Of a stretch of DNA of 64,000 nucleotides, positions 29,012-58,698 are shown piece after piece. The position numbers and the translations under genes are program-made. Under the pieces are notes generated by a model that was not told the DNA's origin, did no database searches, and worked only from the letters and a program-made list of their open reading frames with translations. The stretch comes from an uncultured Lachnospiraceae bacterium (GTDB lineage: Bacteria; Bacillota; Clostridia; Lachnospirales; Lachnospiraceae). The stretch's first letter is position 1, and the number at the start of each line of letters is the position of its first letter. The DNA lies in NCBI GenBank assembly GCA_910579615.1, contig CAJTUA010000005.1:132135-196134 (forward strand), in the 5' to 3' direction.

Positions 29012-29042
29012 GGATGTGGCGGTTGCTATGCCCTATTTTTTT
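29003..29042 (+). terminator. AT-rich hairpin terminator after the NUDIX gene
   Basis: AAAAAATAGGG ... CCCTATTTTTT. Confidence 0.55.
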
Positions 29043-29119
29043 GTGGCAAATTAGAAATAAAAGTGGTATAATCAGACATATTGTTGTAGAGTTTTAGATG
29101 AATAATGGGAGAAATGTAG

Positions 29120-29644: not shown

Positions 29645-29655
29645 TATTGTGAACT

Positions 29656-30123: not shown

Positions 30124-30362
30124 ACGGGGTGCAAGTTTTTTAAATACAGTCTGTCCCCTAGTTTCTTTAGTAATAAGAAATACATGGTGTTAGCAGCATG
30201 TAACAAGGACGATAAGGAGAAAATATGTGTGGGCTTTGTTACACATTATCATTTTAGAATATCTTATTTTACAAGGCATTTAAGATATAAACATGGCGCG
30301 GAGGTTATTTTATGTCTTTATCCTCAAAAACGGTTTTTACTGTGTAACATTTCAAAAATGAG

Positions 30363-30390
30363 TTGCCAAATTGCCGGGATTTGCTATAAT
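30363..30390 (+). promoter_or_regulatory. Strong sigma-A type promoter with no ORF behind it
   Basis: TTGCCA (30363-30368), 16-nt spacer, extended -10 TGCTATAAT (30382-30390). Confidence 0.5.
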
Positions 30391-30396
30391 AAATGT

Positions 30397-30575
30397 GCGG
30401 CAACATTTTGGCAACAGAAAATCAGCAAGCCATTATAAATGATGTAATTGAAGTTTAAACAGGTGTGTATTTGCACAAAAATTAACAAATATAGTTAAGA
30501 ACAACAAAGAACACGCCGAGAAGTTACAAGGGGCTGCTGCAGGGAAGGTTCTCCTTTTGCAGCAACCTCTTTTTG
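30397..30575 (+). ncRNA. Candidate ~180-nt small RNA (promoter-to-terminator unit)
   Basis: Bounded by the promoter at 30363-30390 and the hairpin GGCTGCTGCA...TGCAGCAACC + CTCTTTTT (30532-30575). No SD-preceded ORF inside. Confidence 0.25.
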
Positions 30576-30605
30576 GCAATTTACAACAGCATTTTCCGGG
30601 TTGGC

Positions 30606-31391
30606 TTACTTGCTGAATTGCCTTCCTTCATGGTCGATATCGAAATTTTCCCGTATAATCAGTTCTGAAATCGGTACGAATTCATACCCTTTTTCCTTTA
30701 AAATCGTGATGACCGAGTCCAGGGCATCGGCGGTGTATTTTGCGCCGTTATGCATCAGGATGATGGAGCCGTCGCCAAGGTGTTTGTGCTCAGTGACGGT
30801 CTTGATGATGGAATCAACGCCGTAATCTTTCCAGTCGAGGGAATCGACATCCCATTGGATGGTGTAGTAGCCGCATTCCTCGGCAGCCTGGATTACCGTG
30901 TCGTTGTAATCGCCATAAGGCGGACGGAAGAGTATCATTTCTTCCCCGGTCAGTTCCTTGATGTATTCGTGTGGTTTGGTGAGTTCTTCCTTGCACTGGG
31001 ACAGGGAGAGTGTGGACATCTGCTTGTGGTTCTGGCTGTGGTTGCCAAGGTCGTGCCCGGCGGCAAGGATGGCTTTGACATCGTCCGGGTATTTGTTCAT
31101 CCATCCGCCCGTCATGAAGAAGGTTACGCGCACGTCATGTTTGGCAAGGATTTCGAGGATGCGGGAGGTGTCCTCGTTGCCCCACGCAGCATCAAAACTA
31201 AGCGCAATCTGAGGTTTATCCGTTTTTACACAGTAAATCGGCAATCGTTTTTCGGAGATTGCATTTCCAATCGTATCAACCGCTTTTGGTATGTAAGTAA
31301 AGAGCGCTGCAAACAGCAAAAAGAAGCAGGCACACAGAAAAACGGTCTTGGCAGTTGCATAAAATAAATCTTTTTTATTGGATTCCGGCAT
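30606..31391 (-). CDS. Polysaccharide deacetylase (NodB domain, PdaB-like), N-terminal membrane anchor
   Basis: IALSFDAAWGNEDT, TFFMTGGW, GHDLGNHSQNH and LMHNG blocks. I prefer the ATG at 31391 (MPESNKK) to 31490. Confidence 0.85.
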   Translation of the reverse strand: MPESNKKDLFYATAKTVFLCACFFLLFAALFTYIPKAVDTIGNAISEKRLPIYCVKTDKPQIALSFDAAWGNEDTSRILEILAKHDVRVTFFMTGGWMNKYPDDVKAILAAGHDLGNHSQNHKQMSTLSLSQCKEELTKPHEYIKELTGEEMILFRPPYGDYNDTVIQAAEECGYYTIQWDVDSLDWKDYGVDSIIKTVTEHKHLGDGSIILMHNGAKYTADALDSVITILKEKGYEFVPISELIIRENFDIDHEGRQFSK

Positions 31392-31519
31392 GGAGGTACC
31401 CCCGGCTTTTTTCTTTTTTACAGGATATGCGGCAGGAGTTGTCCGGTAGAATCTTAAAAAACATTGTAACATTTCCGGAAGTTTTTTCACGGTAAAAGGA
31501 ATGGAAGAAGAAGTGGAAA

Positions 31520-45561: not shown

Positions 45562-48237
45562 ATGACAAGACAGGAATTTAGGGAATTGGTTTCAAAAAAA
45601 CGCATCATCCTTGACGGGGCAACGGGCAGCTGCCTGTTTTCGGCAGGGATGCCGCGCGGTGTCTGCCCGGAGCAGTGGATATTGGAAAATCCCAAAGTGC
45701 TCATCCGGCTGCAGGAGGATTACCTTATGGCAGGCACGGATATTTTATACGCGCCAACATTTTCCGGCAACCGCATAAAACTGGAAGAATACGGGCTTGC
45801 TGCGCACGCGCAAAAAATGAACCGGGAGCTGGTCGCACTCTCAAGGGAAGCCATCCGCCGCGCCGGGCGGGAGAACGATGCCTTTGTGGCAGCAGACCTT
45901 ACCATGACCGGAAGGCAGCTTACCCCGGTCGGAACAATGGATTTTGAAGAGCTCGTAGAGGTGTATAAGGAACAGGCGCGCTATTGTGTGGAGGCGGGGG
46001 CAGACCTCTTTGTCGTGGAGACGATGATGAGCCTGCCAGAATGCCGCGCCGCGCTGCTTGCCATCAAGGAAACCTGCGACCTTCCGGTGATGGTAACGCT
46101 CACCTTCCGCGAGGACGGTCGAACCTTTAACGGGAATTCCCCGGAAACGGCTGCAGTTATCCTTGGGAAAATGGGCGCGGATGCGGTCGGCATGAACTGC
46201 TCGACAGGACCGGATAAGCTCCTGCCGTTTGTAAAGCGCATGGCGGCAGTTTCTGATGTGCCCGTGGTGGTAAAGCCAAATGCCGGGCTTCCGGTGCTAA
46301 AGGACGGGGAAACCGTCTACGATATGGGGGCGGCAGAATTTGCGGAGCATATGAAAGCAGTGCTTGGTGCGGGCGCTGCAATTGTAGGCGGCTGCTGCGG
46401 CACGACACCGGAGTACATTAAGCGATTGTCGGAAGCGGCGGCAGAATTTGCGCCGGCAGCTTGCACAGACAAGCATCTTCGGGTGCTTGCGACGGAGCGC
46501 AGCATATTGAACATTGATTTGGACGGGAAATTCCTCGTGATTGGCGAGCGCATCAACCCGACCGGGAAAAAGGCGCTGCAGGCAGAACTTCGTGAGGGCA
46601 GCTTTGATATGGTTGAGGAGATGGCGCAGGCGCAGGTGGAGGACGGTGCGGATATCCTTGACATCAATATGGGAATGAACGGCATTGACGAAAAGGCGAT
46701 GATGCTTGCCGCCATCGAGACCGTTTCGGGGCTTGTGGATGTGCCGCTGTGCATTGATTCAAGCCATCCGGAAATTATCGAGGCGGCGCTGCGGCGCTAT
46801 CCGGGGCGCGCGCTCATCAATTCGATTTCGCTTGAGGCGGGGAAGATGGAAAAACTTCTTCCGGCGGCGAAAAAATACGGCGCGATGTTCATCCTCCTTC
46901 CGCTTTCGCAGACAGGTCTGCCAAAGGATATGGAGGAGAAAAAGCAGATTATCCGCACGATTCTTGCCGAGGCGGAGAAATGTGGGCTGGCGAGGGAGGA
47001 TATTTTCGTGGATGGCCTGGTCAATACGGTCGGCGCGAACCGTGACGCGGCACTTGCCGCGGCGGAGACAATCCGGTACTGCAAGGAAGAACTTGGCGTG
47101 GCGACCATGTGCGGGCTGTCCAATATTTCCTTTGGCCTGCCGGAGCGGCAGTTTGTCAATGCGGCGTTTTTAGCGTTTGCGATTCAGGCAGGGATTACGG
47201 CGGCAATCGTGAACCCGGCGCAAAGGCTGTTAATGAATATGGCGGCGGCATCCGATTTGTTATGCGGCAGGGAGGAGGCGGATATCCGCTATATTGACCG
47301 GGTAACGGGAAAGCCGATGACGCTTGTGGAGACGGCGTATTTGGAGGAACTAAAGGAAAAAGCTGCCGGGAGCGCGGTAACAAGCAAAGGAAGGACAGAT
47401 GCGGGGAACGGGAGCAGAGCAGTCGGTGGGGCAGGGAATGTTACAGGGAATGGGAACGGAGAAGCCGGTGGGGCAGGGAATGTTGCAGGAAATGGAAGCA
47501 GCGGGAGCGGTGAAAATGGAACCGTTGCAGGAAATGCAGGAACCGCCGGAGCGGGGAATACCGCCGGAAGTGGGGGGAAAGCCACAGGTGGAAATGCGGC
47601 AGTGGATGGCGCCGCCCAAAAGATTTATGAGGCGGTGCTCAAAGGCAACCGCAAGGGGATTGTGGCGCTGACAAAGGACGGGCTTGCCGCAGGGCATTTG
47701 CCGCAGGATATTTTAAATGGCCAGCTCATTCCCGCCATCAACGAGGTCGGCGAGCTGTTCAACTGCCAGAAATATTTCCTGCCACAGCTGATTGCTTCGG
47801 CGGAGGCAATGAAAACGGCGGTGGAATATCTGGAACCATTGCTTTCCTCGGATGCACAGATGGAAAAACTCGGCGTGGTCGTTATCGCAACGGTTGCGGG
47901 CGATATCCACGATATCGGAAAAAACCTCGTTGCCCTGATGCTAAAAAATTACGGCTTTGACGTACATGACCTCGGCAAGGATGTGGCGACCACGGACATC
48001 ATCCGCGCGGCGAAGGAGACGGATGCGGACATCATCGCAGTCTCGGCGCTTATGACGACAACGATGCTTGAGATGAAGGAGATTGTAAAGCAGCGCAATG
48101 AGGCAGGGCTGCGCGCAAAGGTTATGATTGGCGGCGCGGTGATTACGCAAAGTTATTGCGATGAAATCCATGCGGACGGATATTCGAAGGACGCGCAGGA
48201 AGCCGTAGCAGTGGCGAGGCGACTGGTTGGGAAATAA
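45562..48237 (+). CDS. metH: Cobalamin-dependent methionine synthase (Hcy-, pterin- and B12-binding modules, no AdoMet reactivation domain) with a Gly/Asn-rich insertion
   Basis: LDGATGS, GMNCS and GGCCGTTPE (Hcy domain); pterin-binding INPTG..., DINMG; B12 motif GDIHDIGKN...SALMTTT. Confidence 0.9.
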   Translation: MTRQEFRELVSKKRIILDGATGSCLFSAGMPRGVCPEQWILENPKVLIRLQEDYLMAGTDILYAPTFSGNRIKLEEYGLAAHAQKMNRELVALSREAIRRAGRENDAFVAADLTMTGRQLTPVGTMDFEELVEVYKEQARYCVEAGADLFVVETMMSLPECRAALLAIKETCDLPVMVTLTFREDGRTFNGNSPETAAVILGKMGADAVGMNCSTGPDKLLPFVKRMAAVSDVPVVVKPNAGLPVLKDGETVYDMGAAEFAEHMKAVLGAGAAIVGGCCGTTPEYIKRLSEAAAEFAPAACTDKHLRVLATERSILNIDLDGKFLVIGERINPTGKKALQAELREGSFDMVEEMAQAQVEDGADILDINMGMNGIDEKAMMLAAIETVSGLVDVPLCIDSSHPEIIEAALRRYPGRALINSISLEAGKMEKLLPAAKKYGAMFILLPLSQTGLPKDMEEKKQIIRTILAEAEKCGLAREDIFVDGLVNTVGANRDAALAAAETIRYCKEELGVATMCGLSNISFGLPERQFVNAAFLAFAIQAGITAAIVNPAQRLLMNMAAASDLLCGREEADIRYIDRVTGKPMTLVETAYLEELKEKAAGSAVTSKGRTDAGNGSRAVGGAGNVTGNGNGEAGGAGNVAGNGSSGSGENGTVAGNAGTAGAGNTAGSGGKATGGNAAVDGAAQKIYEAVLKGNRKGIVALTKDGLAAGHLPQDILNGQLIPAINEVGELFNCQKYFLPQLIASAEAMKTAVEYLEPLLSSDAQMEKLGVVVIATVAGDIHDIGKNLVALMLKNYGFDVHDLGKDVATTDIIRAAKETDADIIAVSALMTTTMLEMKEIVKQRNEAGLRAKVMIGGAVITQSYCDEIHADGYSKDAQEAVAVARRLVGK

Positions 48238-48248
48238 TGGGATGAAAG

Positions 48249-48291
48249 AACCGGGAAGGAATCTGTGTGCGGATTTCTTCCCGGTTTTTTT
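48249..48291 (+). terminator. Rho-independent terminator after metH
   Basis: AACCGGGAAGGAATC...GGATTTCTTCCCGGTT followed by T7. Confidence 0.75.
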
Positions 48292-48391
48292 GTGATGCGA
48301 TTTTTTTGCTTTTGGATAGGATAGATATGTTATAAAATCTACTGATTTATAGAAAAAAGCTGGGAAAATAAACGAATAATACCAAAAAAAC

Positions 48392-48420
48392 TTGATATCG
48401 TGCCTGCGTTATGTTATAAT
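48392..48420 (+). promoter_or_regulatory. Promoter of the duplicated HTH-TPR regulator gene
   Basis: TTGATA (48392-48397), 17-nt spacer, TATAAT (48415-48420). The dyad ATGTTAT-N7-ATAACAT (48411-48431) overlaps the -10. Confidence 0.6.
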
Positions 48421-48559
48421 TGTAATAACATAGTACAGAAAATGATTTGGTATATTTTGCAATGAGAGGTAGAAAGAAGGATATATTGGCGGGAACGGGA
48501 GAAACGGAATTTATTGAAAACAAGGTTCGGATAAGAAACCATAACAGGAAGGATTCTAT

Positions 48560-50425
48560 ATGGGAAAGACACAGGAGCAGAACAGGCAGACGGGAATATT
48601 TGGACAGTTAATTCGCAACATCCGGGAATTGCAGGGAATCAGCCCGGAGGAACTTGCAAGGGGAATCTGCAGCACAAAAGCGTTGGAAAAATATGAAACG
48701 GGGGAGCGGGAACCAGACATATTGACAGCGGAAGCATTATTCGGGCGGCTAAAGAAATCAATGGAAAAATTTGAAGCGATGTTAAGCTGCACGGAACATA
48801 AGCAGCTAAAACAGCGCATGGGAATCCAGCTATTGCTGCGGGAGGGAAAGCTCGCGGAAGCGGAAAAGAAAATTGAAGATTATGCAAAAATAAACCTTGC
48901 ATTGCATTATCAGTATGCATGTTTTCTGAGGGCAGAATTCCTGCGGAAAACGCACGCGTCGTTAAAAGAGCAGATTTGCAATGTGGTGGATGGGATATAC
49001 CAGACATCAGAGGCCCGAAAGGAAAATACCATCCGGAAGGTGACGGCGGAAGAAATGGCAGGGAATGCCCTGAAACCGGAAATGCTGCTAACAGGACGTT
49101 ATTCAAAAATGGAACTGTACTTATTGGAGCGCTATGCGATTTTGTTGGAGGAAAATGGGGAACCGGAGCGGGCAGTCCTCTGGTATCAGGCAATCGTGGA
49201 TTATTTAGAGGATGAGAGATATGATCGTTCCGAACAGTACAGCATTTATCCGATTATGGCTTATAAATTGGCAGGATATTACGAAACACAATGTCTGTAT
49301 ACCATAGCGATGGAGTGGATTGGGCGCGGCTGTGAGATGTTGAGGAAGAGAAAGAGCCAGCTTCCCCTGTTTTGTAAGCTGATGGAGCTGAAATTTAAGA
49401 TAGAGGATTGTCCGGGGGCAGGGAGAAATCCTGATTTCGCGGAGAGGGAGGCATACCGGAAGATGTGTGACAGCGTGGCAGGCTGTACAGAGGATTGGAA
49501 GGAAAACTGGTATCCGATGTACCGTGAGGTACACCGAGTATGTTTTAATGACATTATCCGGGAGCGCAGGATAGCAAAGGGGATGTCAAGAATGGAACTG
49601 GCATACGGAATCTGTGATGTGCGGACACTGGAACGTATGGAAGCCTGCCAGAATACGCCGAGGGCATGGATAAGGGAAAGGCTTTTGGAAAAGCTAGGGC
49701 TGCCATTGGAAAAATATAATGGCGGTATCGTGACAAAGCAGTATGCGGATTATCGGAGATTTTCACAAATGCGGGAATCTTGCCGGAAAGGTGAATATCA
49801 GGAAGCAAAATCCATATATGAAGAATTAAAAAAGGGAATGGATATGAAAAATATTACGAACGAACAGTGGGCGGAATATTGGGATATCCGGATTGAAGGA
49901 GGATTGGGGCATATTCTGCCAAAAGTGAAAGAGGAACGGCTCTGGGCACTTTTAAGAAAGACAGTACCAATCAAAAGGGATTGTCCGCAGTTTGAGTGTC
50001 AGTTGATGGAGCATGAGAGGAATATTTGGAACCAGATTGCGGAAGGTGGAGCACCAGAAGATGGAAAAATAAGAAAATTTCAGTTAAAGCAGATATGGAT
50101 TTATTATCAGGAGAGGGAAAAGAGGTTGATAGAACCACAGTATTTGGTTCAATTACTTACACTTTTCGGAGACCTCACCAGACGGGAAGGGAAGGCTACC
50201 TTGGCGTTACGATATTTACATATAGCAGAGAAAAAGATGGTACTGATGGATGAATGGCATTTTTGGGAATACATTCTATGTCATAAACAGATAGCAATAA
50301 TAGAAACGGGCACAGAGAAAAATGATTTTCAGTGTGCCAGGCAAGCATATGCAGTGAGTTGTCTCTATGCAAAAAATCCGATGATGTGCGATTATCTTAT
50401 CGAGTGTTTTGAAGAAAACATATGA
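48560..50425 (+). CDS. Tandemly duplicated XRE-HTH + helical-repeat (RNPP/Rgg-like) regulator, 621 aa
   Basis: Two HTH domains (residues ~13-65 and ~328-380), each followed by ~240 aa of TPR-like helical sequence. AGGAAGGA RBS. Confidence 0.75.
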   Translation: MGKTQEQNRQTGIFGQLIRNIRELQGISPEELARGICSTKALEKYETGEREPDILTAEALFGRLKKSMEKFEAMLSCTEHKQLKQRMGIQLLLREGKLAEAEKKIEDYAKINLALHYQYACFLRAEFLRKTHASLKEQICNVVDGIYQTSEARKENTIRKVTAEEMAGNALKPEMLLTGRYSKMELYLLERYAILLEENGEPERAVLWYQAIVDYLEDERYDRSEQYSIYPIMAYKLAGYYETQCLYTIAMEWIGRGCEMLRKRKSQLPLFCKLMELKFKIEDCPGAGRNPDFAEREAYRKMCDSVAGCTEDWKENWYPMYREVHRVCFNDIIRERRIAKGMSRMELAYGICDVRTLERMEACQNTPRAWIRERLLEKLGLPLEKYNGGIVTKQYADYRRFSQMRESCRKGEYQEAKSIYEELKKGMDMKNITNEQWAEYWDIRIEGGLGHILPKVKEERLWALLRKTVPIKRDCPQFECQLMEHERNIWNQIAEGGAPEDGKIRKFQLKQIWIYYQEREKRLIEPQYLVQLLTLFGDLTRREGKATLALRYLHIAEKKMVLMDEWHFWEYILCHKQIAIIETGTEKNDFQCARQAYAVSCLYAKNPMMCDYLIECFEENI

Positions 50426-50443
50426 GTGAGAAAAATAAAAAAC

Positions 50444-50632
50444 TTAATCCTTTTCGATAGGTACCGGTTCGGGAAGTGGTGGAGGCGGAGGAAGTGTTCC
50501 CGGACTTTGAAAAATGATAGAAATACTTGGAGAAAGCAGTTCATCGCTTGGCGGTAGTGGTTTCGCTGCGGAAGAGACGAACAGTGCTGTGACAAGCATA
50601 AGGGTGTAAAATTGCTGAAATAGTTTCTTCAT
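50444..50632 (-). CDS. 62-aa secreted Pro-rich pro-peptide (candidate signalling peptide precursor)
   Basis: ATG at 50632 lies 7 nt after AAAGGAG. Sequence MKKLFQQFYTLMLVTALFVSSAA | KPLPPSDELLSPSISIIFQSPGTLPPPPPLPEPVPIEKD. The upstream 82 codons of the track ORF are not protein-like. Confidence 0.55.
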   Translation of the reverse strand: MKKLFQQFYTLMLVTALFVSSAAKPLPPSDELLSPSISIIFQSPGTLPPPPPLPEPVPIEKD

Positions 50633-50715
50633 AGGTACTCCTTTCTTCTCTTTGCGAGAAAATAATATAATGGATGGGTAACAAATACAGTATATCATAA
50701 AGTTCCCCTGTCCGA

Positions 50716-50755
50716 CCGACAAAAGTGGGGGAAAAATTTCCCCCACTTTTGTCGG
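50716..50755. promoter_or_regulatory. Perfect 16-bp palindrome (candidate operator) centred between divergent promoters
   Basis: CCGACAAAAGTGGGGG-AAAAATTT-CCCCCACTTTTGTCGG. Each arm supplies a TTGTCG -35-like hexamer: 17 nt from TATGAT on the minus strand (peptide gene) and 21 nt from the extended -10 TGCTATAAT (50773-50781) on the plus strand. Confidence 0.5.
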
Positions 50756-50889
50756 AATAATTGGAAAAAGGCTGCTATAATGTGAGTGAACATGTTCAGA
50801 ACACGTAGGTAAATGCCTTACAGGCTTCTTTGGACGCTTGGACGCAGAGAGCTTGTAAGGCAAACTTTCAAAAAACATGGAGGTATGTT

Positions 50890-52107
50890 ATGAAATATTT
50901 GAAGGAAAAGATGTGTATGTTGCTGGTGCTCGCCCTGCTTGTAACCGGTTTGGGCAGCGTTGAGCCGATGGTAGCAAAAGCAGAGGAAACGTGGAAACAA
51001 CAATCGGAGGATGATGTACCAGTGCTAGTCTCAGATTGTTTTGAAGATGTTTTGGGATATGCTGAATACTATTTTTACTATGATAAACCAGACATGCCGC
51101 TTGCTGTCTCAGATAGCGATTTTTCACAGTTGCTAATTTCCAAGTCGGAGATTGTTCTGGAGACAAATACCTGCATTGATTATGTTGATGTCGTAGGTGT
51201 TACAGCCAATGGACAGTATATTAATCTATCGAATGTGGTTGATGTGGTTGCTGAGGATGAAGATATCGCTACATATTGGGATGGCAGGATTTACGGTGTT
51301 GGGGAAGGAACGACAGAAATCCGTCTTCGTTATGGTTCGTTGGAAGTAGGGGTTTCGGTAACAGTGAAATCAAATTTTGATTTTGAGGCAATGGTTCAAG
51401 CGATGATTTCTGGGGAAGAAGGGATTTCCTCATATTCTGTTCCAGGACCAGAAATGCAGGACGTGATGACCCGGGCATTTGAAATGGATACGGTGGAATG
51501 GGTGACAAAACAGGAATTCATACTGAATGATGGAACGGAGGTTGCTCTGGGTACGACTTTGCAGGGATTGCCGTATACACAGGAAAACCGCTGTACAGTC
51601 AAAGAATTTGAAACGTTTCACAAAAACTGGGAAAGCAATAAGTTCTATTCGTTTGAACGTCAGGAAAATGGTCATTATTGGTGTAAATATGGAATTGATT
51701 GCAGTGGATTTATTTGTGCAGCATGGAATCTTCCAGTGAGTGGAAAGTATACATATGGCACATCTGATTTTTGGCGAGAAATAAAAGATGAGAATTCCAC
51801 TAAATTTGAGAAGGTTGGGGATTATAAAATTGCGGCAAATGCTACAACAACCAGCGGGGGAGTGCAGCAGCATGAAATATATGCATCTTATCAATACCTA
51901 AATGTTGGTGATGCAGTTGTTCAGAGGAGGAGTGGTGGTGGGCATGCCCGTCTGGTTATGACAAATAATCGTAATACGGAAATGATATCGTTTTATGAAG
52001 CGTATGGAAATTTTCCTACGATAATAACCGTTAGTTATGACCGACTGACTTATGATTATTATTGCCCATTCACAATTAAGACAGATTTTTATAATCAGTA
52101 TAATTAA
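50890..52107 (+). CDS. Secreted Big_2 + NlpC/P60-like (papain-fold) cell-wall hydrolase candidate, 405 aa
   Basis: Signal peptide MKYLKEKMCMLLVLALLVTGLGSVEPMVAKA, an Ig-like block (GVGEGTTEIRLRYGSLEVGVSVTV) and catalytic-type motifs GIDCSGFICAAW and GGGHARLV. GGAGG RBS before the ATG at 50890. Confidence 0.75.
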   Translation: MKYLKEKMCMLLVLALLVTGLGSVEPMVAKAEETWKQQSEDDVPVLVSDCFEDVLGYAEYYFYYDKPDMPLAVSDSDFSQLLISKSEIVLETNTCIDYVDVVGVTANGQYINLSNVVDVVAEDEDIATYWDGRIYGVGEGTTEIRLRYGSLEVGVSVTVKSNFDFEAMVQAMISGEEGISSYSVPGPEMQDVMTRAFEMDTVEWVTKQEFILNDGTEVALGTTLQGLPYTQENRCTVKEFETFHKNWESNKFYSFERQENGHYWCKYGIDCSGFICAAWNLPVSGKYTYGTSDFWREIKDENSTKFEKVGDYKIAANATTTSGGVQQHEIYASYQYLNVGDAVVQRRSGGGHARLVMTNNRNTEMISFYEAYGNFPTIITVSYDRLTYDYYCPFTIKTDFYNQYN

Positions 52108-52159
52108 AGCTTTATTGTTATAATAATAGTTGCTCATTATGTTGTAATTATGGAGGATT

Positions 52160-52864
52160 ATGAAGCGATATTACATTATATTTATAGCATTACTATTCTG
52201 CCTAAGCCTGCTTTCCTGTGGAAAGCAGACCGGGCAGGTGGTAGGGGATTCCCCGGTTTTGTCGGATGCCCCATCCCCATCCATTGTTATGGAAACATTT
52301 CCAACGGACGTGGTACAGGCGGAGTCACCGACAACCACCCCTGTTCTGACCCCGACAGAAATTCTGTCCTGCACGCCGTCACCCGTGCCATCCCCAATCT
52401 CTCCAGAGCCTACCCTGCCGCCGCTTGACATTACGCTGGTGGATGACGGTCTCCCGTGGGATGAGGAGGCATTGCCGGAAACGGATTATGTATATATTGT
52501 CCGCTTTATCCCTACCGACAGGGATGATTTGCTTGTGGCATATAAGGTGTGCGTGGATGTACAATGGGACATGAACGATTTCTATGACGATCAAAAACGT
52601 CCGAAAAAGCTTTATACATGGTGGCTGCAGGAGGATGCTTTTTGTTTTGTGCGCTGTAATGGGAGCTCTCCGGTCGGATATAATGAAAAAACAACACCGG
52701 ACTATATCGCGCAGGATTTATCCCGTTGGAAGGATGTGGAACCAGGGATGTACAATATTTCCCATGATTTATTCCGCTGGCTGATTAAATGGTATGAGAT
52801 CAATTGGTGGTGTGGTGTGAAGGACGGAGAAATTGTTTATGTACGGCAGCATATAGAAGGATGA
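52160..52864 (+). CDS. Lipoprotein of unknown family (candidate cognate inhibitor/immunity protein)
   Basis: Lipobox LSLLSC, Pro/Ser/Thr linker and a Trp-rich ~150-aa globular C-terminus. Lies 52 nt after the hydrolase gene; GGAGGA RBS. Confidence 0.75.
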   Translation: MKRYYIIFIALLFCLSLLSCGKQTGQVVGDSPVLSDAPSPSIVMETFPTDVVQAESPTTTPVLTPTEILSCTPSPVPSPISPEPTLPPLDITLVDDGLPWDEEALPETDYVYIVRFIPTDRDDLLVAYKVCVDVQWDMNDFYDDQKRPKKLYTWWLQEDAFCFVRCNGSSPVGYNEKTTPDYIAQDLSRWKDVEPGMYNISHDLFRWLIKWYEINWWCGVKDGEIVYVRQHIEG

Positions 52865-52876
52865 TTGAATTAGTCA

Positions 52877-53122
52877 GTGCAAAGACATGATGTTTATGAT
52901 GCTGCGTATCTGTCATTAACTGTAGGAGATGCGATAGTGAATGGTGAACATTGCAGACTGATATCCTCTAATGATACAGCGAGAAAGAAAGTAATTGTTA
53001 ATGAAGCAAGCGGAAATACACCAAGTATACATTCTTATACATATGATGATTTGGCGAATGAAGGATATTTGCTGTTTACTATAACGGAAGGCTACTTTAA
53101 TTCTTTTGACAAGAATAAGTAG
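52877..53122 (+). pseudogene. Orphan 3' fragment of a second NlpC/P60-like paralog
   Basis: From its first codon it aligns with the last ~80 aa of the 405-aa enzyme: VQRHDVYDAAYLSLTVGDAIV..EHCRLI...YTYDDL...LFTI vs VQQHEIYASYQYLNVGDAVV..GHARLV...VSYDRL...PFTI. It lacks the Cys-containing N-terminal part. The frame opens only 1 codon upstream. Confidence 0.65.
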
Positions 53123-53130
53123 AGTTAAGA

Positions 53131-53166
53131 AAAGGGGGATTGCGATTTTTAACGCAATCCCTTTTG
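53131..53166 (+). terminator. Rho-independent terminator after the hydrolase-lipoprotein-fragment unit
   Basis: GGGATTGCG (53136-53144) / CGCAATCCC (53153-53161), flanked by an A-run and TTTT. Confidence 0.7.
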
Positions 53167-53252
53167 GAGAATTTTTAATATTGATATAACGGTTTATTAA
53201 CAAAAAATATATGATTTTAGAAGAATTATTTATGCAGTAAAAGGAGGAAGCC

Positions 53253-53657
53253 ATAAAAAAGAAAAAGATTATTTTATTTTGTGGGGGCATTTTGGTATGT
53301 ATATTAGCATTATCTCTGTTTTTTAGGAACGCAGGGCAGGATGCTTTAGATGCTGCAAACCGAATCACCACATTTTCCTGTTCTGAGACATTGACGCAAA
53401 AGCTTGGCGAAACGGATAGTGAAGCCTTGAAAGAACAATTGGCAGAAATGCTTATCGTGGAGATTTTTGAACAGGAGCAGGAAAGCATTTCCATCAAAAT
53501 TGTTTCGGATTATGCGGAGGCAGCTTTCTGCTTTGGAACGGAGCGGGAGGTTACGGAAAAGGAGTGCGGTATCTTTTTGGAGATTCCGGGATTTGAGTAC
53601 CGGTTTTATGGTGAAGACCATTTGGTGGATTTGGGTAGATGGCTGGGAAAGAGATGA
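53253..53657 (+). CDS. Hypothetical N-terminally anchored protein; start codon unclear (ATA at SD distance, or TTG at 53292)
   Basis: AAGGAGG (53241-53247) lies 5 nt before an in-frame ATA. The encoded (I)KKKKIILFCGGILVCILALSLFF looks like a signal/anchor. The track ORF begins at TTG 53292, inside the hydrophobic segment. Confidence 0.4.
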   Translation: MKKKKIILFCGGILVCILALSLFFRNAGQDALDAANRITTFSCSETLTQKLGETDSEALKEQLAEMLIVEIFEQEQESISIKIVSDYAEAAFCFGTEREVTEKECGIFLEIPGFEYRFYGEDHLVDLGRWLGKR

Positions 53658-53664
53658 TACACTT

Positions 53665-53925
53665 TTGGTACGAAGTGCGCAGGAAGTAGTCTCAGAACTG
53701 CCGGGAAGGGGATGGGAGGCAGCGGAAGGGAGCGAGAAAGAGATTTTGTTGGATGAGGAGACAAGGATTATTTGCCTGGATTTAAAAGATGGACACGAAG
53801 AAGGATATTGTGAAACGTCACTTAAAAATTTCCACAGTATTTTGAAGGAAGAGGGGAGTAATGTTTATTTTGTTGGTTGGAAAGATGGGAAAGTGAAATG
53901 TATGATAAATATATTTATTTCTTGA
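53665..53925 (+). CDS. Hypothetical acidic ORF in the +1 frame (separate small gene, or the frameshifted continuation of the previous ORF)
   Basis: The frame-1 ORF (track 53467..53925) becomes protein-like only after ~53630. TTG at 53665 with a weak AAAGAG upstream. Confidence 0.3.
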   Translation: MVRSAQEVVSELPGRGWEAAEGSEKEILLDEETRIICLDLKDGHEEGYCETSLKNFHSILKEEGSNVYFVGWKDGKVKCMINIFIS

Positions 53926-54022
53926 TATCATAATTTTTTAGTTTGGTTATTTGAATGGTTGATGGAACAGGGATTCATTTCATAACAGGATTCTGTATTC
54001 GATAACAGAGGGAAATTAGTAA

Positions 54023-54706
54023 ATGCAAACCAAAAAAATCATTCTCCAATGTACAAATCTCTGCAAAAGCTACGAAGACGGAGAGAATCAGCGGGAGATA
54101 TTAAAAAATGTAAATCTGGAAATTTCCGCAGGAAGCATCTGCCAAATCTGCGGAAAAAGCGGGAGCGGAAAGACAACGCTGTTAAATCTCTTAGCGGGCT
54201 TGGACTGTGCCACGTTAGGAACTATCCGTTTTTCCGGGAAAACTTATGGAACGATGTCCGAAGAAGAACACGCGAAGCTGCGCGGCGAATCTTTTGGATT
54301 TGTTTTCCAGTCGTTTCATCTGCTAAGAAATGTTTCTGTCGAGGAAAATATCAAAGCTCCGGCATATGTAAACGGCAGAAAAGTTGATTCTGAGTATATG
54401 GGTTATCTTGTGGAAATGCTCGGATTAAAAGATTTACGAAAGCAGATGGTCTGCAAGCTGTCCGGCGGGGAACAACAAAGAACTGCGATTGCGCGGGCAA
54501 TGCTTTTAAAGCCACAGATTGTTTTTGCGGATGAGCCGACGGGAAACCTGGATTCTGCCAATACAGAATTGATTGTGGAATTGTTTCGGAAAATTAACAA
54601 GGAACAGGGAACGACATTTGTTGTCGTGACACACGAGGAAGATTTGTTAAAACCATGTGCAAAACAGATATGGATAAAGGATGGCGAGGTGCAGCTTGAA
54701 GAATAA
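54023..54706 (+). CDS. ABC transporter ATP-binding protein (MacB/LolD/FtsE-like)
   Basis: Walker A GKSGSGKTTLLN, signature LSGGEQQR and Walker B VFADEPTGNLD. Confidence 0.9.
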   Translation: MQTKKIILQCTNLCKSYEDGENQREILKNVNLEISAGSICQICGKSGSGKTTLLNLLAGLDCATLGTIRFSGKTYGTMSEEEHAKLRGESFGFVFQSFHLLRNVSVEENIKAPAYVNGRKVDSEYMGYLVEMLGLKDLRKQMVCKLSGGEQQRTAIARAMLLKPQIVFADEPTGNLDSANTELIVELFRKINKEQGTTFVVVTHEEDLLKPCAKQIWIKDGEVQLEE

Positions 54707-56840
54707 CAGAAAAAATTATAAAAAATTAGCTGAGTTTTTATTTTCGGACAGTAAAAAACTCGTACTGCTTGCAGGGGGAGTTTTGTTGGCAGCATTGAGT
54801 TTCTCACTTTTTTTCATTTCGGTAAACAGCACCATCGTTGCGTCAAGGAGGCAGACGGCGGTAGAGACACACGGAAGGTTTTTGGCGGTATTTACAGATA
54901 TTGATAAAGAAATAGCCGATGAAATTATGGAAAAAGAGCCGATGTTTGACTATCAGGTGTTTCAGGTGCAGGACGAGATGTATTATGGCAGCAGCCGTTT
55001 TTTTTCTGGTTGGGTAACTGAGGAAACAGGAAAAAACATGGGGATATTTTTAAAGGAGGGAGCCTGGCCGGAGAGGGAAAATGAGATTTTGCTGGAAAAA
55101 TATTTAGCATACCGTTTGGGGATTTCCGAATTTCCGCAAAATGCTATTTTTATGGTGGATGGCGAAGAAAGGGAATACCTTGTGTGCGGTACCATCCGGA
55201 ATTATTCTGGCAATCTTGTAACGTCGAATCGGGATTTGAATCTAAGAAAAGATTATCCTTCTGCAATCACGCCGGGTTACAGGGAAAATGCAGAGGTTTC
55301 CCTCCTTATTTTACAGAAACGGCTGAATTTGGGAACATCAACAGAAGATATGTACGATGTCATGGATTTGCGCAATGAATATGGGATTAGCCCATACTTT
55401 TCTGCTTTAAATAAATATATGGATGAAACCTATCAAAATACCATAGATTTCGAAAGGTTTGGTCTGGTTTATATGATGGCAGTGCTTCTTGTGCTTCTGC
55501 TTGTTGAGGCTGTGATTTTTCGGGCGGTTGTCCTGAAAAATAAGTGTTCGGAACGCAGTCTTAGGGAGCTGGGGCTGACGAAGAAGGAGGTCATGCTGGC
55601 GTATGGCCTGCGGTTTGGAAAGGTTTTTTTGGAAACAATAGGATTCCAGGTAGTTATAGGTGTTCTTTGGGCAAAAATAGGGGGATATCTTACGGGGTAT
55701 GGAAAACTTTTGGAAAAGCATGTCTGGTACACGTTGCTGAAAGAATTTGCAGTCCTGGTTCTGCTTTTACTGATTCTTGCCGTTATGGCATGGGACCGTA
55801 AAACGTGGGAAAAAACGGCTGACGTAAAACAGAAAAAAAATTCCCGGTATTTATTTCGCAAATTGAATGAAATGCAGGAAGCTTACGGTCTTTCAGTATT
55901 TGATATCGGCGGAGGGGAGCGGTGGGAAGAATGGGAGGATATATTGGAGGGGGAGGAAGCAAGACGCTATGAGCCGCTGCCGTGGGATACTTTCGAAGTG
56001 CTGATTTTGCCGGAACAACAATACCAGCTGTTTTTAAATGAGAATGGTATCCCATGGGAGGACTCGCCTTCCGCGATGCCGGAATGTATTATGGTATTGC
56101 CCATGTTTGCTGAGGACGAGGAAATCGTTGGCGTAAGTGATGGTTCTGCCATCACCGTCGGCAGGGTTTTTTTGCAGGATGGAAAACTGTTATTTGAGAA
56201 GGAAGAATATTGCGCATGGAAGGTATTGAAAAATGCAAAAGGCATGGAAGAATCTTTTTCGGCAAGATGTCTGTGCGGGTTGGTATTTTCCGCAGCGCAG
56301 GCAGAGAAAAGTAAGCTGATTTCCGGATACAGCCATCTTTATTTCCGGCTGCGGGGGGATGCGACAAAGCAACAGCAGGAAGAAATCGACAATGCGATTG
56401 CCATGCTTGCCGCGTCCGCGCAGGGGGGAGGTTCGTTTTCGACGATTGAGGAACAAAAGGACGATGCACTTTTTGAAAGTTATGCAGCGTTTATGGGCAC
56501 TACCATGTTTGTTTTTGCATTGTTTGCTATGGGTGCATTTGTTTTTATGCATTACTATGTCAGCTGGGAGAAAAACAAATATGTATATGGGGTGTTCCGC
56601 AGTATGGGGATGCCGTACCGCACGCTCTGCGGCAAGCTTTTTGTGCAGTATGTAACGGGAATTGTTTTCGCGTGGTTTTTTGCGTGCTATATTGTGGAGA
56701 ATGTTTTCGGATATCGATTTACGGCGGGGCAGGTTGCCTTGTGCACGGGATTTTTGCTGCTTTTCATTGAAAGCTGTTATGCGGTGCTGTATGGCGTGTA
56801 TAAAAAGACTGCCATATGTAAAATGCTGCAGGAAGAATGA
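54681..56840 (+). CDS. FtsX/MacB-type ABC permease with two large soluble domains, 719 aa
   Basis: By eye: TM1, ~220-aa domain, three TMs, a ~230-aa acidic domain, then three C-terminal TMs. The start is either ATG 54681 or TTG 54696 (after GAGGTG). Confidence 0.8.
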   Translation: MARCSLKNNRKNYKKLAEFLFSDSKKLVLLAGGVLLAALSFSLFFISVNSTIVASRRQTAVETHGRFLAVFTDIDKEIADEIMEKEPMFDYQVFQVQDEMYYGSSRFFSGWVTEETGKNMGIFLKEGAWPERENEILLEKYLAYRLGISEFPQNAIFMVDGEEREYLVCGTIRNYSGNLVTSNRDLNLRKDYPSAITPGYRENAEVSLLILQKRLNLGTSTEDMYDVMDLRNEYGISPYFSALNKYMDETYQNTIDFERFGLVYMMAVLLVLLLVEAVIFRAVVLKNKCSERSLRELGLTKKEVMLAYGLRFGKVFLETIGFQVVIGVLWAKIGGYLTGYGKLLEKHVWYTLLKEFAVLVLLLLILAVMAWDRKTWEKTADVKQKKNSRYLFRKLNEMQEAYGLSVFDIGGGERWEEWEDILEGEEARRYEPLPWDTFEVLILPEQQYQLFLNENGIPWEDSPSAMPECIMVLPMFAEDEEIVGVSDGSAITVGRVFLQDGKLLFEKEEYCAWKVLKNAKGMEESFSARCLCGLVFSAAQAEKSKLISGYSHLYFRLRGDATKQQQEEIDNAIAMLAASAQGGGSFSTIEEQKDDALFESYAAFMGTTMFVFALFAMGAFVFMHYYVSWEKNKYVYGVFRSMGMPYRTLCGKLFVQYVTGIVFAWFFACYIVENVFGYRFTAGQVALCTGFLLLFIESCYAVLYGVYKKTAICKMLQEE

Positions 56841-56983
56841 TTGGGCTGCCGCGGGATGGGGCGGCTGTTCCTGACCTGAAATGTCGGCATAAAATGTGAT
56901 AAGGTCATTGACAACGATACTTTTTTGATATAAAATATCCTTAGTAGCTTTCAACATGCATTTTACTTTGAGGAGGGGAAAGA

Positions 56984-57661
56984 ATGAGAAAAAAATTATA
57001 TGGGATTGCCGCATTGCTATCCATCTTTTGCATTGCAATTTTATTTTTTGCAATATTATCCGTTGGCAGGAGGCAAGCTGCCCCTTCCTATGAAGGGGAA
57101 TGGCTTACAGCAGAAGGAAACTATACATACCCGATGACACCGTACAAGGAAGAATGGGCGCAGCTGGATATTCTGGAAAGGCGGGAGAGCTGCAATATGC
57201 CGCAGGAACTGGTGGATATGCTTACAACCGAGGAACTTGTGAATGCTGCTTTGGATTATCCGCTAAAGATGGATTATATAGGATTTTCCAGTCCGGAAAA
57301 AGGTCTGGAGCATTTGAAAGGAAGTTCGAATGTTTACCGGGAGCTATTTAAAAGAGAAGATATCATAGAGAATTTATTGAAGGCTTATCGGGATTTGCAA
57401 GTTGATTATGATTTGCTTGTTTCTGAAACGGTTTCAAATCCGTGGGAGAAAAGTGGCTATGCCAAAGAATTAATATTGCAATTGTTGATTGGGTGCGATG
57501 AAATATTTGACCAACTGACAGAGGCACAGATGGAAGAGCTTCTTACAGTCGTGGATGAGCGATATGCTGCAAAACAGGGAACGGGCGATGATTTTACAAT
57601 GGCATGGAGCCGAAACAATCCGTTTTTACTTGGCAGGGAGGGAATTTTGGATTTGGAATGA
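56984..57661 (+). CDS. Hypothetical N-terminally anchored protein, 225 aa
   Basis: GAGGAGGGG RBS, one N-terminal TM (IAALLSIFCIAILFFAILSV) and a helical acidic remainder. No family recognised. Confidence 0.6.
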   Translation: MRKKLYGIAALLSIFCIAILFFAILSVGRRQAAPSYEGEWLTAEGNYTYPMTPYKEEWAQLDILERRESCNMPQELVDMLTTEELVNAALDYPLKMDYIGFSSPEKGLEHLKGSSNVYRELFKREDIIENLLKAYRDLQVDYDLLVSETVSNPWEKSGYAKELILQLLIGCDEIFDQLTEAQMEELLTVVDERYAAKQGTGDDFTMAWSRNNPFLLGREGILDLE

Positions 57662-57740
57662 TTGCGGGTTGCTTTTATCTGGCCTGGATTTTCTCTTTTT
57701 GTGCGTCTTGTCAGGATTCTATATTTGAGAGGGAGGTATT

Positions 57741-58631
57741 ATGGGTAAAAAAAGATTGACACGGATACTGGTTCTCCTTTTTTGTCTTGTGCTTTGCATC
57801 GGAAGCATCCTTGCGCGAAACATTCGTCCCTTTGCGCAGGAACAGGCAGAACCAATGCAGGCAGACCTAGAATGGCTTGAGGAAATCAGGAAAATCATGT
57901 CGGAGGGTACTTCCCCGTACATGGCCATCCCATGGTCAGAACAAAAACCCTGTGAACAATACCCATATGCCGACTGGGATGGCGGCACTTATGTTTCTTC
58001 CGGCCAAAAAATTGGGGAAGAAAAGACAGGCGAATATCTTGGCAGTGCCATTGCCTATGGACGGGAGTCCCTGGATGCTTTGAGCCAAACAAAAAATATC
58101 CGGTATATCCGGCATGAGAAAAAGGCGGAATTATACCGCATCCATGAAATATCGGAACGTTTTGCGGTGGCGGTTCGCCTGGAGGGTGAGCAGAAATATT
58201 ATGTATATGCGAGGGAGGATTATGTACCGGAAACACTGGGAGATTTTGTGGAAGATTCCAATTTAAAAGAATATCTGGAAATCTCTGTGGAGTTTGAATG
58301 TGGAAACAATCCGGAGGAAACATACCGGGGGGATATCGCGGATGCTTTGTGGGATATCCTCCTGTCGCAAAAAGAGGTAAAAAGCCAGAAAAAACCGCAC
58401 CATAGCGTTTTTGTCTCCGATGAGGAGGTGGGTGATATTGTATTTTCGGCCGCGATTCTCTATGAACTGACGAGATGGGGGCATATCACGTTTTATGTGT
58501 CGGAGCATGGGTACATTGGAATCAACGGACCGCTTTTGAATCCGGAATATATTTTCCCGGTGGGGGAGAATGCGGCGGAAGAATTTTTGGAATACATTTA
58601 TGCAAATTGTAAGAAGATAGAGGAGAAATAA
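57741..58631 (+). CDS. Hypothetical secreted/anchored protein, 296 aa
   Basis: GGGAGG RBS and a signal/anchor (ILVLLFCLVLCIGSILA). No family recognised. Confidence 0.6.
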   Translation: MGKKRLTRILVLLFCLVLCIGSILARNIRPFAQEQAEPMQADLEWLEEIRKIMSEGTSPYMAIPWSEQKPCEQYPYADWDGGTYVSSGQKIGEEKTGEYLGSAIAYGRESLDALSQTKNIRYIRHEKKAELYRIHEISERFAVAVRLEGEQKYYVYAREDYVPETLGDFVEDSNLKEYLEISVEFECGNNPEETYRGDIADALWDILLSQKEVKSQKKPHHSVFVSDEEVGDIVFSAAILYELTRWGHITFYVSEHGYIGINGPLLNPEYIFPVGENAAEEFLEYIYANCKKIEEK

Positions 58632-58634
58632 AAA

Positions 58635-58686
58635 AATGAGGTACTCTGTAAAGCAAAAGCTTTCATGGAGCACCTCATTCTTTTTT
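58635..58686. terminator. Bidirectional terminator at the right edge of the island
   Basis: AATGAGGTACTC...GAGCACCTCATT (11 of 12 bp) + CTTTTTT, between convergent genes. Confidence 0.7.
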
Positions 58687-58698
58687 ACAAATCCCTGC

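Follow-up and report, generated by a model that had tools for sequence, protein, structure and literature searches.

A candidate peptide quorum-sensing cassette with a fused double receptor, a secreted hydrolase-like enzyme and a lipoprotein in a low-G+C island of a Lachnospiraceae bacterium

We analyzed a stretch of 64,000 nucleotides (nt) from an uncultured Lachnospiraceae bacterium (contig CAJTUA010000005.1 of assembly GCA_910579615.1, positions 132,135 to 196,134 of the forward strand). The whole stretch is called the window in this report, and our subject is a low-G+C island at positions 48300-58690 of it. The results suggest, with moderate confidence, that the left ~4.9 kb of this island (~48.39-53.17 kb) carries a cassette for peptide quorum sensing of the PlcR/RRNPP kind, which drives an output operon of two genes encoding a secreted enzyme and a lipoprotein. 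The remaining 5.5 kb, with small open reading frames (ORFs), an ATP-binding cassette (ABC) gene pair and two anchored proteins, consists of separate accessory units in the same variable locus. The components of the left part are as follows.

48392-48420, plus strand: sigma-70-type promoter-like site before the receptor gene, TTGATA-17-TATAAT with an upstream TG, 11 of the 12 consensus positions (a consensus match only).
48560-50425, plus strand: putative cytoplasmic receptor of 621 amino acids (aa), with two PlcR-like units in tandem (N half ~1-310, C half ~311-621), each combining a helix-turn-helix (HTH) domain with a tetratricopeptide repeat (TPR) region.
50632-50444, minus strand: gene of a putative 62-aa propeptide, which converges on the receptor gene (stop codons 18 nt apart) and has a strong Shine-Dalgarno sequence.
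50697-50689, minus strand: extended -10 element, TGATATACT, of the putative peptide promoter, which lacks a -35 box; 21 nt separate it from the palindrome's left arm; found by conservation in four loci and by a promoter scan.
50716-50755, between the two promoters: perfect palindrome of 40 bp, candidate shared operator, with 19-nt arms that are 100% complementary and 2 nt between them.
50773-50781, plus strand: extended -10 element of the hydrolase operon, TGCTATAAT, separated from the right arm by 20 nt; element and distance are both conserved in four loci, with no gaps.
50788-50797: mini-palindrome GAACATGTTC, at approximately the predicted transcription start.
50890-52107, plus strand: secreted enzyme of 405 aa, with a signal peptide, a Big_2 domain (~77-160) and a divergent CHAP/NlpC-P60-like domain (~186-405; C271, H352, E370).
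52160-52864, plus strand: lipoprotein of 234 aa, with the lipobox LLSC, a Pro/Ser/Thr linker and a C-terminal domain of ~140 aa.
52877-53122, plus strand: relic of 81 aa, the 3' end of a second hydrolase allele, which keeps the His region and is without the Cys region.
53132-53165, plus strand: terminator-like hairpin with a 13-bp stem (free energy, dG, -19 to -21 kcal/mol; z -4.9), followed by UUUUGGAGAAUUUUU; the probable end of the peptide-controlled operon.

The original prediction, which had been made from the letters of the sequence, described the regulator as a duplicated HTH-TPR protein, and our comparisons agree with this description. The two halves of the receptor align with each other with 28% identity over the HTH and the first helices (E 7e-9), and an HTH_3 match was obtained at residues 18-70. 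When the receptor and seven relatives were combined into a whole-protein profile, the best solved structure was PlcR (2qfc), with profile positions 10-261 aligned to PlcR residues 2-239 (E 4.9e-7). The profile of the C half also matched PlcR, at residues 8-255 (E 5.6e-6), as well as the HTH of ComR (E 8.7e-7) and Lmo0325. That is, the profile of each half leads to PlcR. In two of the related loci, L006 and L007 (such labels denote related loci throughout), the halves are encoded by separate, overlapping genes, which correspond to profile positions 7-279 and 314-525. The C-half orthologue of L006 passes the gathering threshold of the Pfam model RNPP_C (31.4 bits vs 26.5) and also matches TPR_1. 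Full-length orthologues of 592-646 aa were found in several metagenomes.

In the published signature of RRNPP systems (PMC10075063), a receptor of ~250-500 aa with a peptide-binding TPR region is the direct neighbour of a small propeptide of 10-100 aa, which has a Sec signal or belongs to the SHP type. In our case, the TPR region was detected at profile level only, the propeptide has 62 aa, and receptor and propeptide genes are direct neighbours here and in all related loci. The length is outside the range, with 621 aa for the receptor and 592-646 aa for its orthologues, each half being ~310 aa. The published detector retains only proteins of 250-500 aa (PMC10075063), and thus a fused double receptor lies outside the sampling of the published census. 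No Lachnospiraceae name occurs in the available part of the supplementary text of PMC10075063. By these profile comparisons the protein is probably a tandem-fused RRNPP-type receptor; the original interpretation of the island, taken as a whole, is partly supported.

The convergent, exported and Pro-rich peptide that had been proposed next to the regulator was found as an ORF, and its orthologues recur in several lineages. By inspection only, its N-terminus is of the Sec type, since it consists of MKK, ~16 hydrophobic residues and SSA/A, a pattern that is seen in seven orthologues; in the hydropathy analysis the hydrophobic core is too short for a membrane-helix score. The C-terminus is rich in Pro (LPPPPPLPEPVPIEKD). 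An orthologous small gene adjoins, in the same position, every complete receptor relative with readable downstream DNA. These orthologues encode 44-72 aa and are convergent, 0-20 nt from the stop codon of the receptor gene; in L024, the receptor of which is only 26% identical, the convergent gene of a 44-aa signal-bearing peptide overlaps that stop codon. The seven propeptide orthologues start with MK(K), continue with a hydrophobic core and a variable middle, and end with a Pro-rich C-terminal motif, of which the variants are PPPLPEPVPIEKD, PSPPFPEPVPIEKD, PPPPLPEPSPIEIL, PPPPLPPSPKPIDKE, LPPFPFPPKPY and LPDFPSFPFPG. In addition, the Shine-Dalgarno region of the peptide gene is invariant across four loci (the window, L009, L012 and L014).

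The strongest piece of evidence came from a comparison of L002 with L016, which belong to one lineage. The two loci are 100% identical over 6.9 kb save ~400 nt, where the identity is 73%. This divergent part consists of the peptide gene and the last 60 residues of the receptor, and every one of the 24 residues at which the receptors differ lies within 582-642. Because the differences are confined to both the peptide and the receptor tail, we think that these two parts function together, and the mosaic looks like a pherotype switch.

We also considered a role of the 62-aa peptide as a precursor of a ribosomally synthesized and post-translationally modified peptide (RiPP). This was rejected, since the peptide is without Cys and no modification enzymes are encoded nearby. 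As a separate observation, L023 (6001-11129) contains a double receptor of 592 aa, 22% identical to that of the window, followed by a perfect inverted repeat with 24-nt arms (8271-8327), and beyond the repeat lie a PqqD gene and two radical-SAM genes, which resemble a RiPP cluster. Switches of this type may thus also govern peptide natural products.

The perfect palindrome between the divergent promoters, as originally predicted, was recovered with its 19-nt arms and occurs as a single copy in the window. By a rough estimate, the chance expectation of such a palindrome in a 550-nt stretch is ~1e-7. In the window, L009, L012 and L014, the receptors of which are 59-76% identical, each arm has 12-13 outer nt (CCGACAAAAGTG / CACTTTTGTCGG) that do not vary. 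The intergenic DNA around these invariant arms has diverged among the sister loci, and the site is present once in each locus. The distances from the arms to the -10 elements are also conserved in the four loci. At the -35 position of the hydrolase promoter the sequence reads CGGAAT, which overlaps the end of the palindrome, and no -35 box is present there. In L012 and L009, uncompensated changes disrupt the inner G5/C5 stem, and on neither strand is the full hairpin followed by a U-run; the palindrome is therefore probably no terminator. From this pattern of conservation, we favour the view that the palindrome is a candidate operator serving both divergent promoters.

The other double-receptor lineages have a long inverted repeat of their own between the peptide gene and the cargo genes. 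The repeats are as follows.

L002: 32-nt arms, 81% complementary.
L006: 23-nt arms, 83% complementary.
L024: 20-nt arms, 95% complementary.
L023: 24-nt arms, 100% complementary.

Scans for the exact palindrome in JGI metagenomes and viral contigs found nothing. The mini-palindrome GAACATGTTC has an unchanged sequence in the window, L012 and L009, and a single substitution in L014 (GAATATGTTC). It could be a second operator; its identification with a LexA-type box was rejected, because the spacing is wrong. The leader of the hydrolase gene, ~100 nt in length, also contains an inverted repeat of 13 nt at 50814-50862 (92% complementary, 23 nt apart).

The logic of this locus had been compared with RNPP quorum sensing before our analysis. 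The PlcR matches of both halves, the RNPP_C match, and the recurrence of the convergent Pro-rich peptide and of the inverted repeat all argue for that comparison, and we consider it quite likely that the locus is a peptide-receptor signalling module.

The first product of the output operon, the 405-aa protein, begins with a signal peptide whose hydrophobic core (residues 10-28) is followed by AKA/E. The Big_2 domain is based on profile matches to LigA and LigB in the PDB, down to E 1e-9, and on a Foldseek match to LigA (E 7.8e-7). In a word-indexed search only 4 homologues were found among 5.8 billion proteins, and a 4-sequence alignment finds 2 loci among 185,579 species genomes. An exhaustive profile search gave 766 relatives, 47 of them below E 1e-30. 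The AlphaFold2 (AF2) model that we used was built on an alignment of 50 sequences and has a pLDDT (predicted local distance difference test) of 88.5; the 4-sequence model was poor (pLDDT 60.9). The profile of the catalytic domain was trimmed, and the untrimmed version drew in choline-binding repeats from neighbouring domains.

Across the 50 relatives, C271 (in the motif YGxDCSGF) and H352 show no variation, E370 is conserved in at least 90%, and the same was observed in a 30-sequence alignment of the domain. In the AF2 model, C271 is located at the N-terminus of helix 271-278, H352 on strand 350-360 and E370 on the next strand, 365-372; the modelled layout is the papain-like arrangement of CHAP and NlpC/P60 enzymes. 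Among the relatives, 7/34 match CHAP and 3/34 match Amidase_6, exactly on the homologous domain, and one relative is above the CHAP threshold (28.5 bits vs 26). The relatives fuse the catalytic domain to choline-binding repeats, SH3_3, GH25 muramidase, Cu_amine_oxidN1 and dockerin, and these fusion partners point to the cell wall as the likely substrate. We think that the enzyme probably cleaves peptidoglycan. The initial designation of this protein as a signal-peptide Big_2 plus NlpC/P60-type enzyme therefore stands for Big_2, by LigA, LigB and Foldseek, and for NlpC/P60 at the superfamily level only, by the CHAP and Amidase_6 matches of the relatives.

The lipoprotein expected after the hydrolase is present, with its lipobox LLSC. 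In 8/8 hydrolase lineages, the hydrolases of which are pairwise 31-68% identical, a lipoprotein gene lies immediately 3' of the hydrolase gene. The lipoboxes are listed below.

Window lineage: LLSC.
L001/L015: LTSC, the lipoprotein being 50-53% identical to that of the window.
L002/L016: GNAC, the lipoprotein being 34% identical to that of L017.
L006-L008: LSGC.
L017/L018: LNSC.
L019: FVGC.
L020/L021: LCGC.
L022: FAAC.

The lipoproteins of the eight lineages have no detectable mutual similarity save two homologous pairs and one weak match. That of the window has only two homologues among 5.8 billion proteins, and searches with family models and against protein databases gave no sequence similarity to described inhibitors. 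Judging from the gene order, the lipoprotein appears to be a dedicated partner of the hydrolase in a fixed partnership. Its role as an immunity factor, that is, as a candidate for self-protection, is proposed here tentatively, and we would not give it an even chance.

The regulators adjoining the hydrolase differ among the lineages, as follows.

Window, L002/L016 and L006-L008: double receptor and peptide.
L017 (2239-9956): AgrC-like kinase (HATPase_c_5) and LytTR response regulator, with hydrolase and lipoprotein between them.
L001/L015: two-component system of a HAMP-HisKA kinase and an OmpR-type regulator.
L020/L021: extracytoplasmic function (ECF) sigma factor and DUF4367 anti-sigma factor.

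The order of regulator, peptide, hydrolase and lipoprotein, for which conservation in other genomes had been suggested as a check, thus occurs in three lineages, with hydrolases that are only 37-43% identical. The arrangement in L017 may link the hydrolase-lipoprotein module to another peptide-signalling system. Because the lipoprotein is constant and the regulators vary, we regard the enzyme-lipoprotein pair as a module captured by different signalling inputs.

The gene fragment that follows the lipoprotein gene had been taken for the 3' remnant of a second NlpC/P60 paralog, and this proved correct. The relic is 37% identical to residues 325-405 of the resident enzyme (E 1e-14), and it covers positions 130-196 of the 197-position profile of the catalytic domain. 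It is closer to the L006-type hydrolase (51% identical) than to the resident one (37%), which suggests replacement of the cassette by recombination.

On the basis of the computed homologies, the gene order, the conservation of the repeat and the -10 elements, and the localized mosaic of peptide and receptor tail, we infer the following mechanism. The 621-aa double receptor would be expressed in the cytoplasm from its sigma-70-type promoter. The 62-aa propeptide would be exported by Sec, its Pro-rich C-terminus would be cut outside the cell to give the signal, and the signal would then be re-imported. The receptor loaded with the peptide would bind the inverted repeat at 50716-50755, which is 20-21 nt upstream of the divergent extended -10 promoters without -35 boxes. 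The binding would activate both the peptide gene, as a positive feedback, and the operon of the hydrolase, the lipoprotein and perhaps the relic, which would end at the hairpin 53132-53165. The output would be a secreted peptidoglycan amidase or endopeptidase, with a Big_2 domain and a CHAP/NlpC-P60-like Cys-His-Glu catalytic domain. The lipoprotein would protect the producer's own wall, either as an inhibitor or as an immunity factor; the output would then correspond to the "bacteriolysin with immunity" of the original prediction.

We next describe the island as a whole. Its G+C content is 42.7% as against 50.4% in the remaining window, and the 10.4-kb segment with the lowest G+C of the whole 64 kb begins at 48301. 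The G+C values that had been counted by hand for three single lines were reproduced (31.7%, 46.7% and 61.7%), and the G+C profile and hairpin folding confirmed the sharp drop in composition between two terminators. Every ORF named earlier for the island was found, together with the palindrome. The borders and the genes of the right part are as follows.

~48248-48291, plus strand: intrinsic terminator of metH, hairpin with dG -30.3 kcal/mol and z -7.4, followed by U7; left border of the island, where the G+C falls.
53255-53925 (listed as 53292-53925), plus strand: two small ORFs that overlap (listed lengths 121 and 152 aa), outside the core module.
54023-54706, plus strand: ABC ATPase of 227 aa, of the LolD/MacB/FtsE type.
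54681-56840, plus strand: permease of 719 aa, in which hydropathy gives a first transmembrane segment (TM1), a 215-aa loop, TM2-4, a 233-aa hydrophilic region and three further TM.
56908-56936, plus strand: promoter-like site before the gene of the 225-aa protein, 11 of the 12 consensus positions.
56984-57661 and 57741-58631, plus strand: two N-terminally anchored or secreted proteins (by hydropathy) of 225 aa (anch225) and 296 aa.
~58636-58686, both strands: bidirectional terminator, dG -22.5 / -28.4 kcal/mol on the two strands, bordered by an A-run and, at the opposite end, by a U-run; right border of the island.

Just outside the left border, metH (45562-48237) contains a low-complexity insert of ~75 residues, rich in Gly, Asn and Ala (GNGSRAVGGAGNVTGNGNGEAGG...; window 47350-47600), between the pterin-binding and the B12-binding parts. 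The window also has a second, smaller low-G+C patch at 26448-31490 (0.37-0.41 at 28-31 kb). This patch holds an XRE-type regulator (26448-27365, minus strand), which matches the double-receptor profile weakly (E 6.5e-4), a lipoprotein (27628-28437), several small enzymes and a polysaccharide-deacetylase-like gene (30606-31490, minus strand); the enzyme names were read from translations alone.

In the family-model searches no integrase or transposase family matched the ORFs of the island, and no flanking direct repeats or tRNA were found around it, as had been stated earlier for integrase, transposase and direct repeats. No plasmid or phage match was obtained, and in PHROGs and PADLOC the proteins of the island gave nothing beyond generic HTH and ATPase matches. 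Of the features by which mobile islands are recognized, low G+C is the only one seen. We therefore rejected a mobile element: its hallmarks were not found, and the receptor-peptide module occupies the same site 3' of metH in sister genomes.

The small ORFs matched no protein family in Pfam, NCBIfam, PHROGs or PADLOC. Within 53241-53300, a strong Shine-Dalgarno sequence, AAAGGAGG, is followed by ATA AAA AAG AAA AAG..., which encodes an N-terminus like a signal anchor; the ORF with the listed start 53292 could use a non-ATG start codon, or its ATG could have been lost. Homologues of the small ORFs are paired in L014. Upstream of these homologues, at 7018-7134 of L014, there is a 39-residue fragment with 79% identity to receptor residues 13-51, which looks like a recombination scar in the variable locus.

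The best NCBIfam matches of the ATPase are LolD, MacB and FtsE, all below the cut-offs. The first half of the permease has the topology expected of the MacB/FtsX type (TM1, a large loop and TM2-4), and no match to Pfam FtsX was found at E <= 0.1. Thus, of the MacB/FtsX-type ABC pair that had been proposed, the ATPase can be kept as LolD/MacB/FtsE-type at sub-cut-off scores, and the FtsX permease could not be confirmed. The ABC pair is absent from all related loci, that is, from the other hydrolase lineages and the receptor loci.

Several observations weigh against reading the left part of the island as a peptide-controlled operon with a wall-lytic product. In Pfam, the window receptor matches HTH models only, with weak TPR matches (E 0.27-0.74), and its sequence alone gave no match in the PDB. 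The span from arm to arm is 33, 36 or 39 nt depending on the locus, which is unusual for the operator of a dimer. The 405-aa protein itself matches no Pfam, NCBIfam or PHROG model; the best PDB matches of the trimmed profile, the NlpC/P60 proteins LytE and 8er5, fall on the Cys and His motifs and are not significant (E 0.17-0.94). In the Foldseek comparison with the PDB and viral structures, the Ig (Big_2) domain was the only one among the matches listed, so that the catalytic fold is not assignable by structure comparison. Furthermore, the closest hydrolase homologue (68% identical) is without the receptor-peptide module. Conversely, in sister genomes the module at the same place 3' of metH is followed by anch225-like proteins directly after the palindrome, with no hydrolase. 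From these sister genomes and the separate downstream genes, we regard the locus as a variable site in which a quorum-sensing-like module fronts interchangeable secreted cargo.

Since both promoters have a good extended -10 element, the receptor could equally be a repressor. In this case the double receptor would repress both divergent promoters from the palindrome, which overlaps both -35 positions, and the peptide would relieve or modulate the repression, as is described for PrgX, some Rgg proteins and AimR. Near-consensus extended -10 elements can function in the absence of an activator, the palindrome reaches as far as the -35 position on either side, and a second conserved mini-palindrome lies at ~+1, all of which would suit repression. 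The closest structural relative by sequence is nevertheless PlcR, whose PDB entries are titled 'transcriptional activator', and promoters that lack a -35 box and abut a binding site are typical of activated ones; we regard repression as unlikely. A reading without any signalling, in which an ordinary XRE-family regulator adjoins an unrelated secreted protein or an unexpressed ORF and the palindrome is an insulating or terminating hairpin, seems very improbable to us. It is true that the RNA hairpin is very stable (dG -37 kcal/mol), that the inner stem followed by CACUUUUGUC was flagged by the terminator scan on both strands, that the arm spacing varies as a loop would, and that the gap between the genes of receptor and peptide is too short to hold a terminator. 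However, the full stem lacks a U-run on either strand, and it is the inner G5/C5 stem that is broken without compensation (L012, L009) and the outer arms that are invariant. Moreover, both halves of the regulator have PlcR-like TPR regions, the Shine-Dalgarno sequence, signal region and C-terminal motif of the peptide are conserved, and the mosaic is restricted to the peptide gene and the receptor tail.

For the output, the hydrolase might be the cell's own autolysin, acting in daughter-cell separation, wall turnover, sporulation or programmed lysis for biofilm DNA, with the lipoprotein as its anchor, chaperone or activator and with no competitor as target. Most CHAP and NlpC/P60 enzymes are housekeeping autolysins, and stress-type regulators (an ECF sigma factor and a two-component system) adjoin the family in some lineages. 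In addition, a specific inhibitor is expected to track its target, and the lipoproteins are mutually unrelated whereas the enzymes are 31-68% identical. Against this stand the rarity and patchiness of the enzyme family, given the numbers of close homologues and of loci in species genomes described above, and the low-G+C variable locus beside the relic of a displaced allele. For these reasons an accessory weapon fits better than a core autolysin, and the autolysin seems doubtful to us. Finally, the earlier view that all ten genes form one system, with the ABC pair exporting the enzyme or the peptide and the anchored proteins as accessories, was not borne out, and we find it hardly probable. The genes, save that of the convergent peptide, lie on one strand in a single low-G+C block, the NCBIfam matches of the ATPase include, besides the LolD/MacB/FtsE types, a putative bacteriocin-export ABC family (186 bits, under the 255-bit cut-off), and FtsEX-type complexes control CHAP and NlpC/P60 hydrolases such as PcsB, CwlO and RipC. 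On the other hand, a terminator-like hairpin (53132-53165) follows the relic, anch225 has its own promoter-like site, and the downstream genes are not co-conserved with the hydrolase, the ABC genes being missing from the other hydrolase lineages and all receptor loci. The enzyme and the peptide also have Sec-type signals of their own, and the permease has no FtsX match.

We then compared the cassette of receptor, peptide, enzyme and lipoprotein with known systems. In the PlcR-PapR system of the Bacillus cereus group, the PlcR box has the consensus TATGNAN4TNCATA, and papR lies downstream of plcR in the same orientation. Our module is similar to PlcR-PapR in its cytoplasmic HTH and TPR receptor, each half of which aligns with PlcR over ~240 residues, and in its adjacent small Sec-type propeptide with the informative part at the C-terminus. 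It also shares the palindromic box at the target promoters, including that of the peptide gene itself, and the pherotype-like co-variation of peptide and receptor, here seen in L002/L016. The module differs in that its repeat, CCGACAAAAGTG..CACTTTTGTCGG, is not a PlcR box, having arms of 12-19 nt with variable spacing, and in that the Pro-rich peptide is encoded by a convergent gene that nearly abuts the receptor gene. The host is a member of Lachnospiraceae and the output is a single small operon. The two units form one chain of 621 aa, whereas validated RRNPP receptors span 285-473 aa; the properties of PlcR-PapR compared here were taken in part from the same source (PMC10075063).

The streptococcal Rgg-SHP group III and ComR-XIP systems are likewise RRNPP receptors with an adjacent small peptide gene, and the C-half profile matches the HTH of ComR, as described above. 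A convergent orientation has been described for the group III shp genes. The streptococcal receptors are single-unit, and SHP and XIP are without Sec signals and exit via PptAB (PMC10075063), whereas peptides of the window type have a signal-like N-terminus.

On the side of the output, the streptococcal fratricins (CbpD/ComM, ScrM/ScrI, LytF and CrfP) are CHAP murein hydrolases that are induced by quorum sensing and have dedicated immunity (bioRxiv 10.1101/2024.09.27.615381). The statement that no described system has this composition was thus too strong, and among known systems the fratricins come closest in function. Both systems combine a secreted CHAP-type hydrolase on a wall- or surface-binding module with peptide quorum-sensing control and a paired self-protection gene, all of them predicted or proposed functions in our case. 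Fratricins are controlled via competence (ComCDE, or ComRS through ComX) and not by a neighbouring receptor as here, and their immunity is conferred by ComM, a polytopic membrane protein, or by ScrI, a Fem-type transferase, whereas our candidate is a lipoprotein. In our enzyme the catalytic domain is below the threshold of the CHAP model, and the binding module is Big_2. As for the lipoprotein, IseA (YoeB) neutralizes D,L-endopeptidases of Bacillus subtilis, and lipoprotein immunity to secreted amidase effectors is also known. These cases, in which a dedicated extracytoplasmic protein acts against a wall hydrolase of the NlpC/P60 type, provide a model for the proposed role. The window lipoprotein differs from them in having no similarity to described inhibitors, and the partner lipoproteins are mostly unrelated between lineages.

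In conclusion, RRNPP signalling and signal-controlled wall hydrolases are known elements of this cassette. The novelty lies in the fusion of two receptor units, the convergent and Pro-rich propeptide, the unusual length of the operator, the CHAP-like family outside existing models with its obligatory lipoprotein, and the Lachnospiraceae host. Peptide quorum sensing has been well studied in bacilli, streptococci and a few clostridia, and hardly in the Lachnospiraceae that dominate the gut. Similar systems are possibly under-counted, because the 250-500-aa filter of the census (PMC10075063) misses fused double receptors. The fusion poses the question of how two HTH-TPR units in a single chain recognize a long symmetric site and either one peptide or two. 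We speculate, while thinking it rather unlikely as a whole, that this cassette represents an unrecognized RRNPP branch, with a fused receptor, a convergent Pro-rich Sec propeptide and a long operator, which arms a fratricin-like hydrolase with lipoprotein immunity for pherotype-specific kin discrimination among gut Lachnospiraceae. The rare CHAP-like enzyme and its fast-changing lipoprotein could form a new kind of pair, of enzyme and inhibitor or of effector and immunity protein, that acts on the walls of Gram-positive bacteria, and such a pair may find use as a narrow-spectrum lytic agent.

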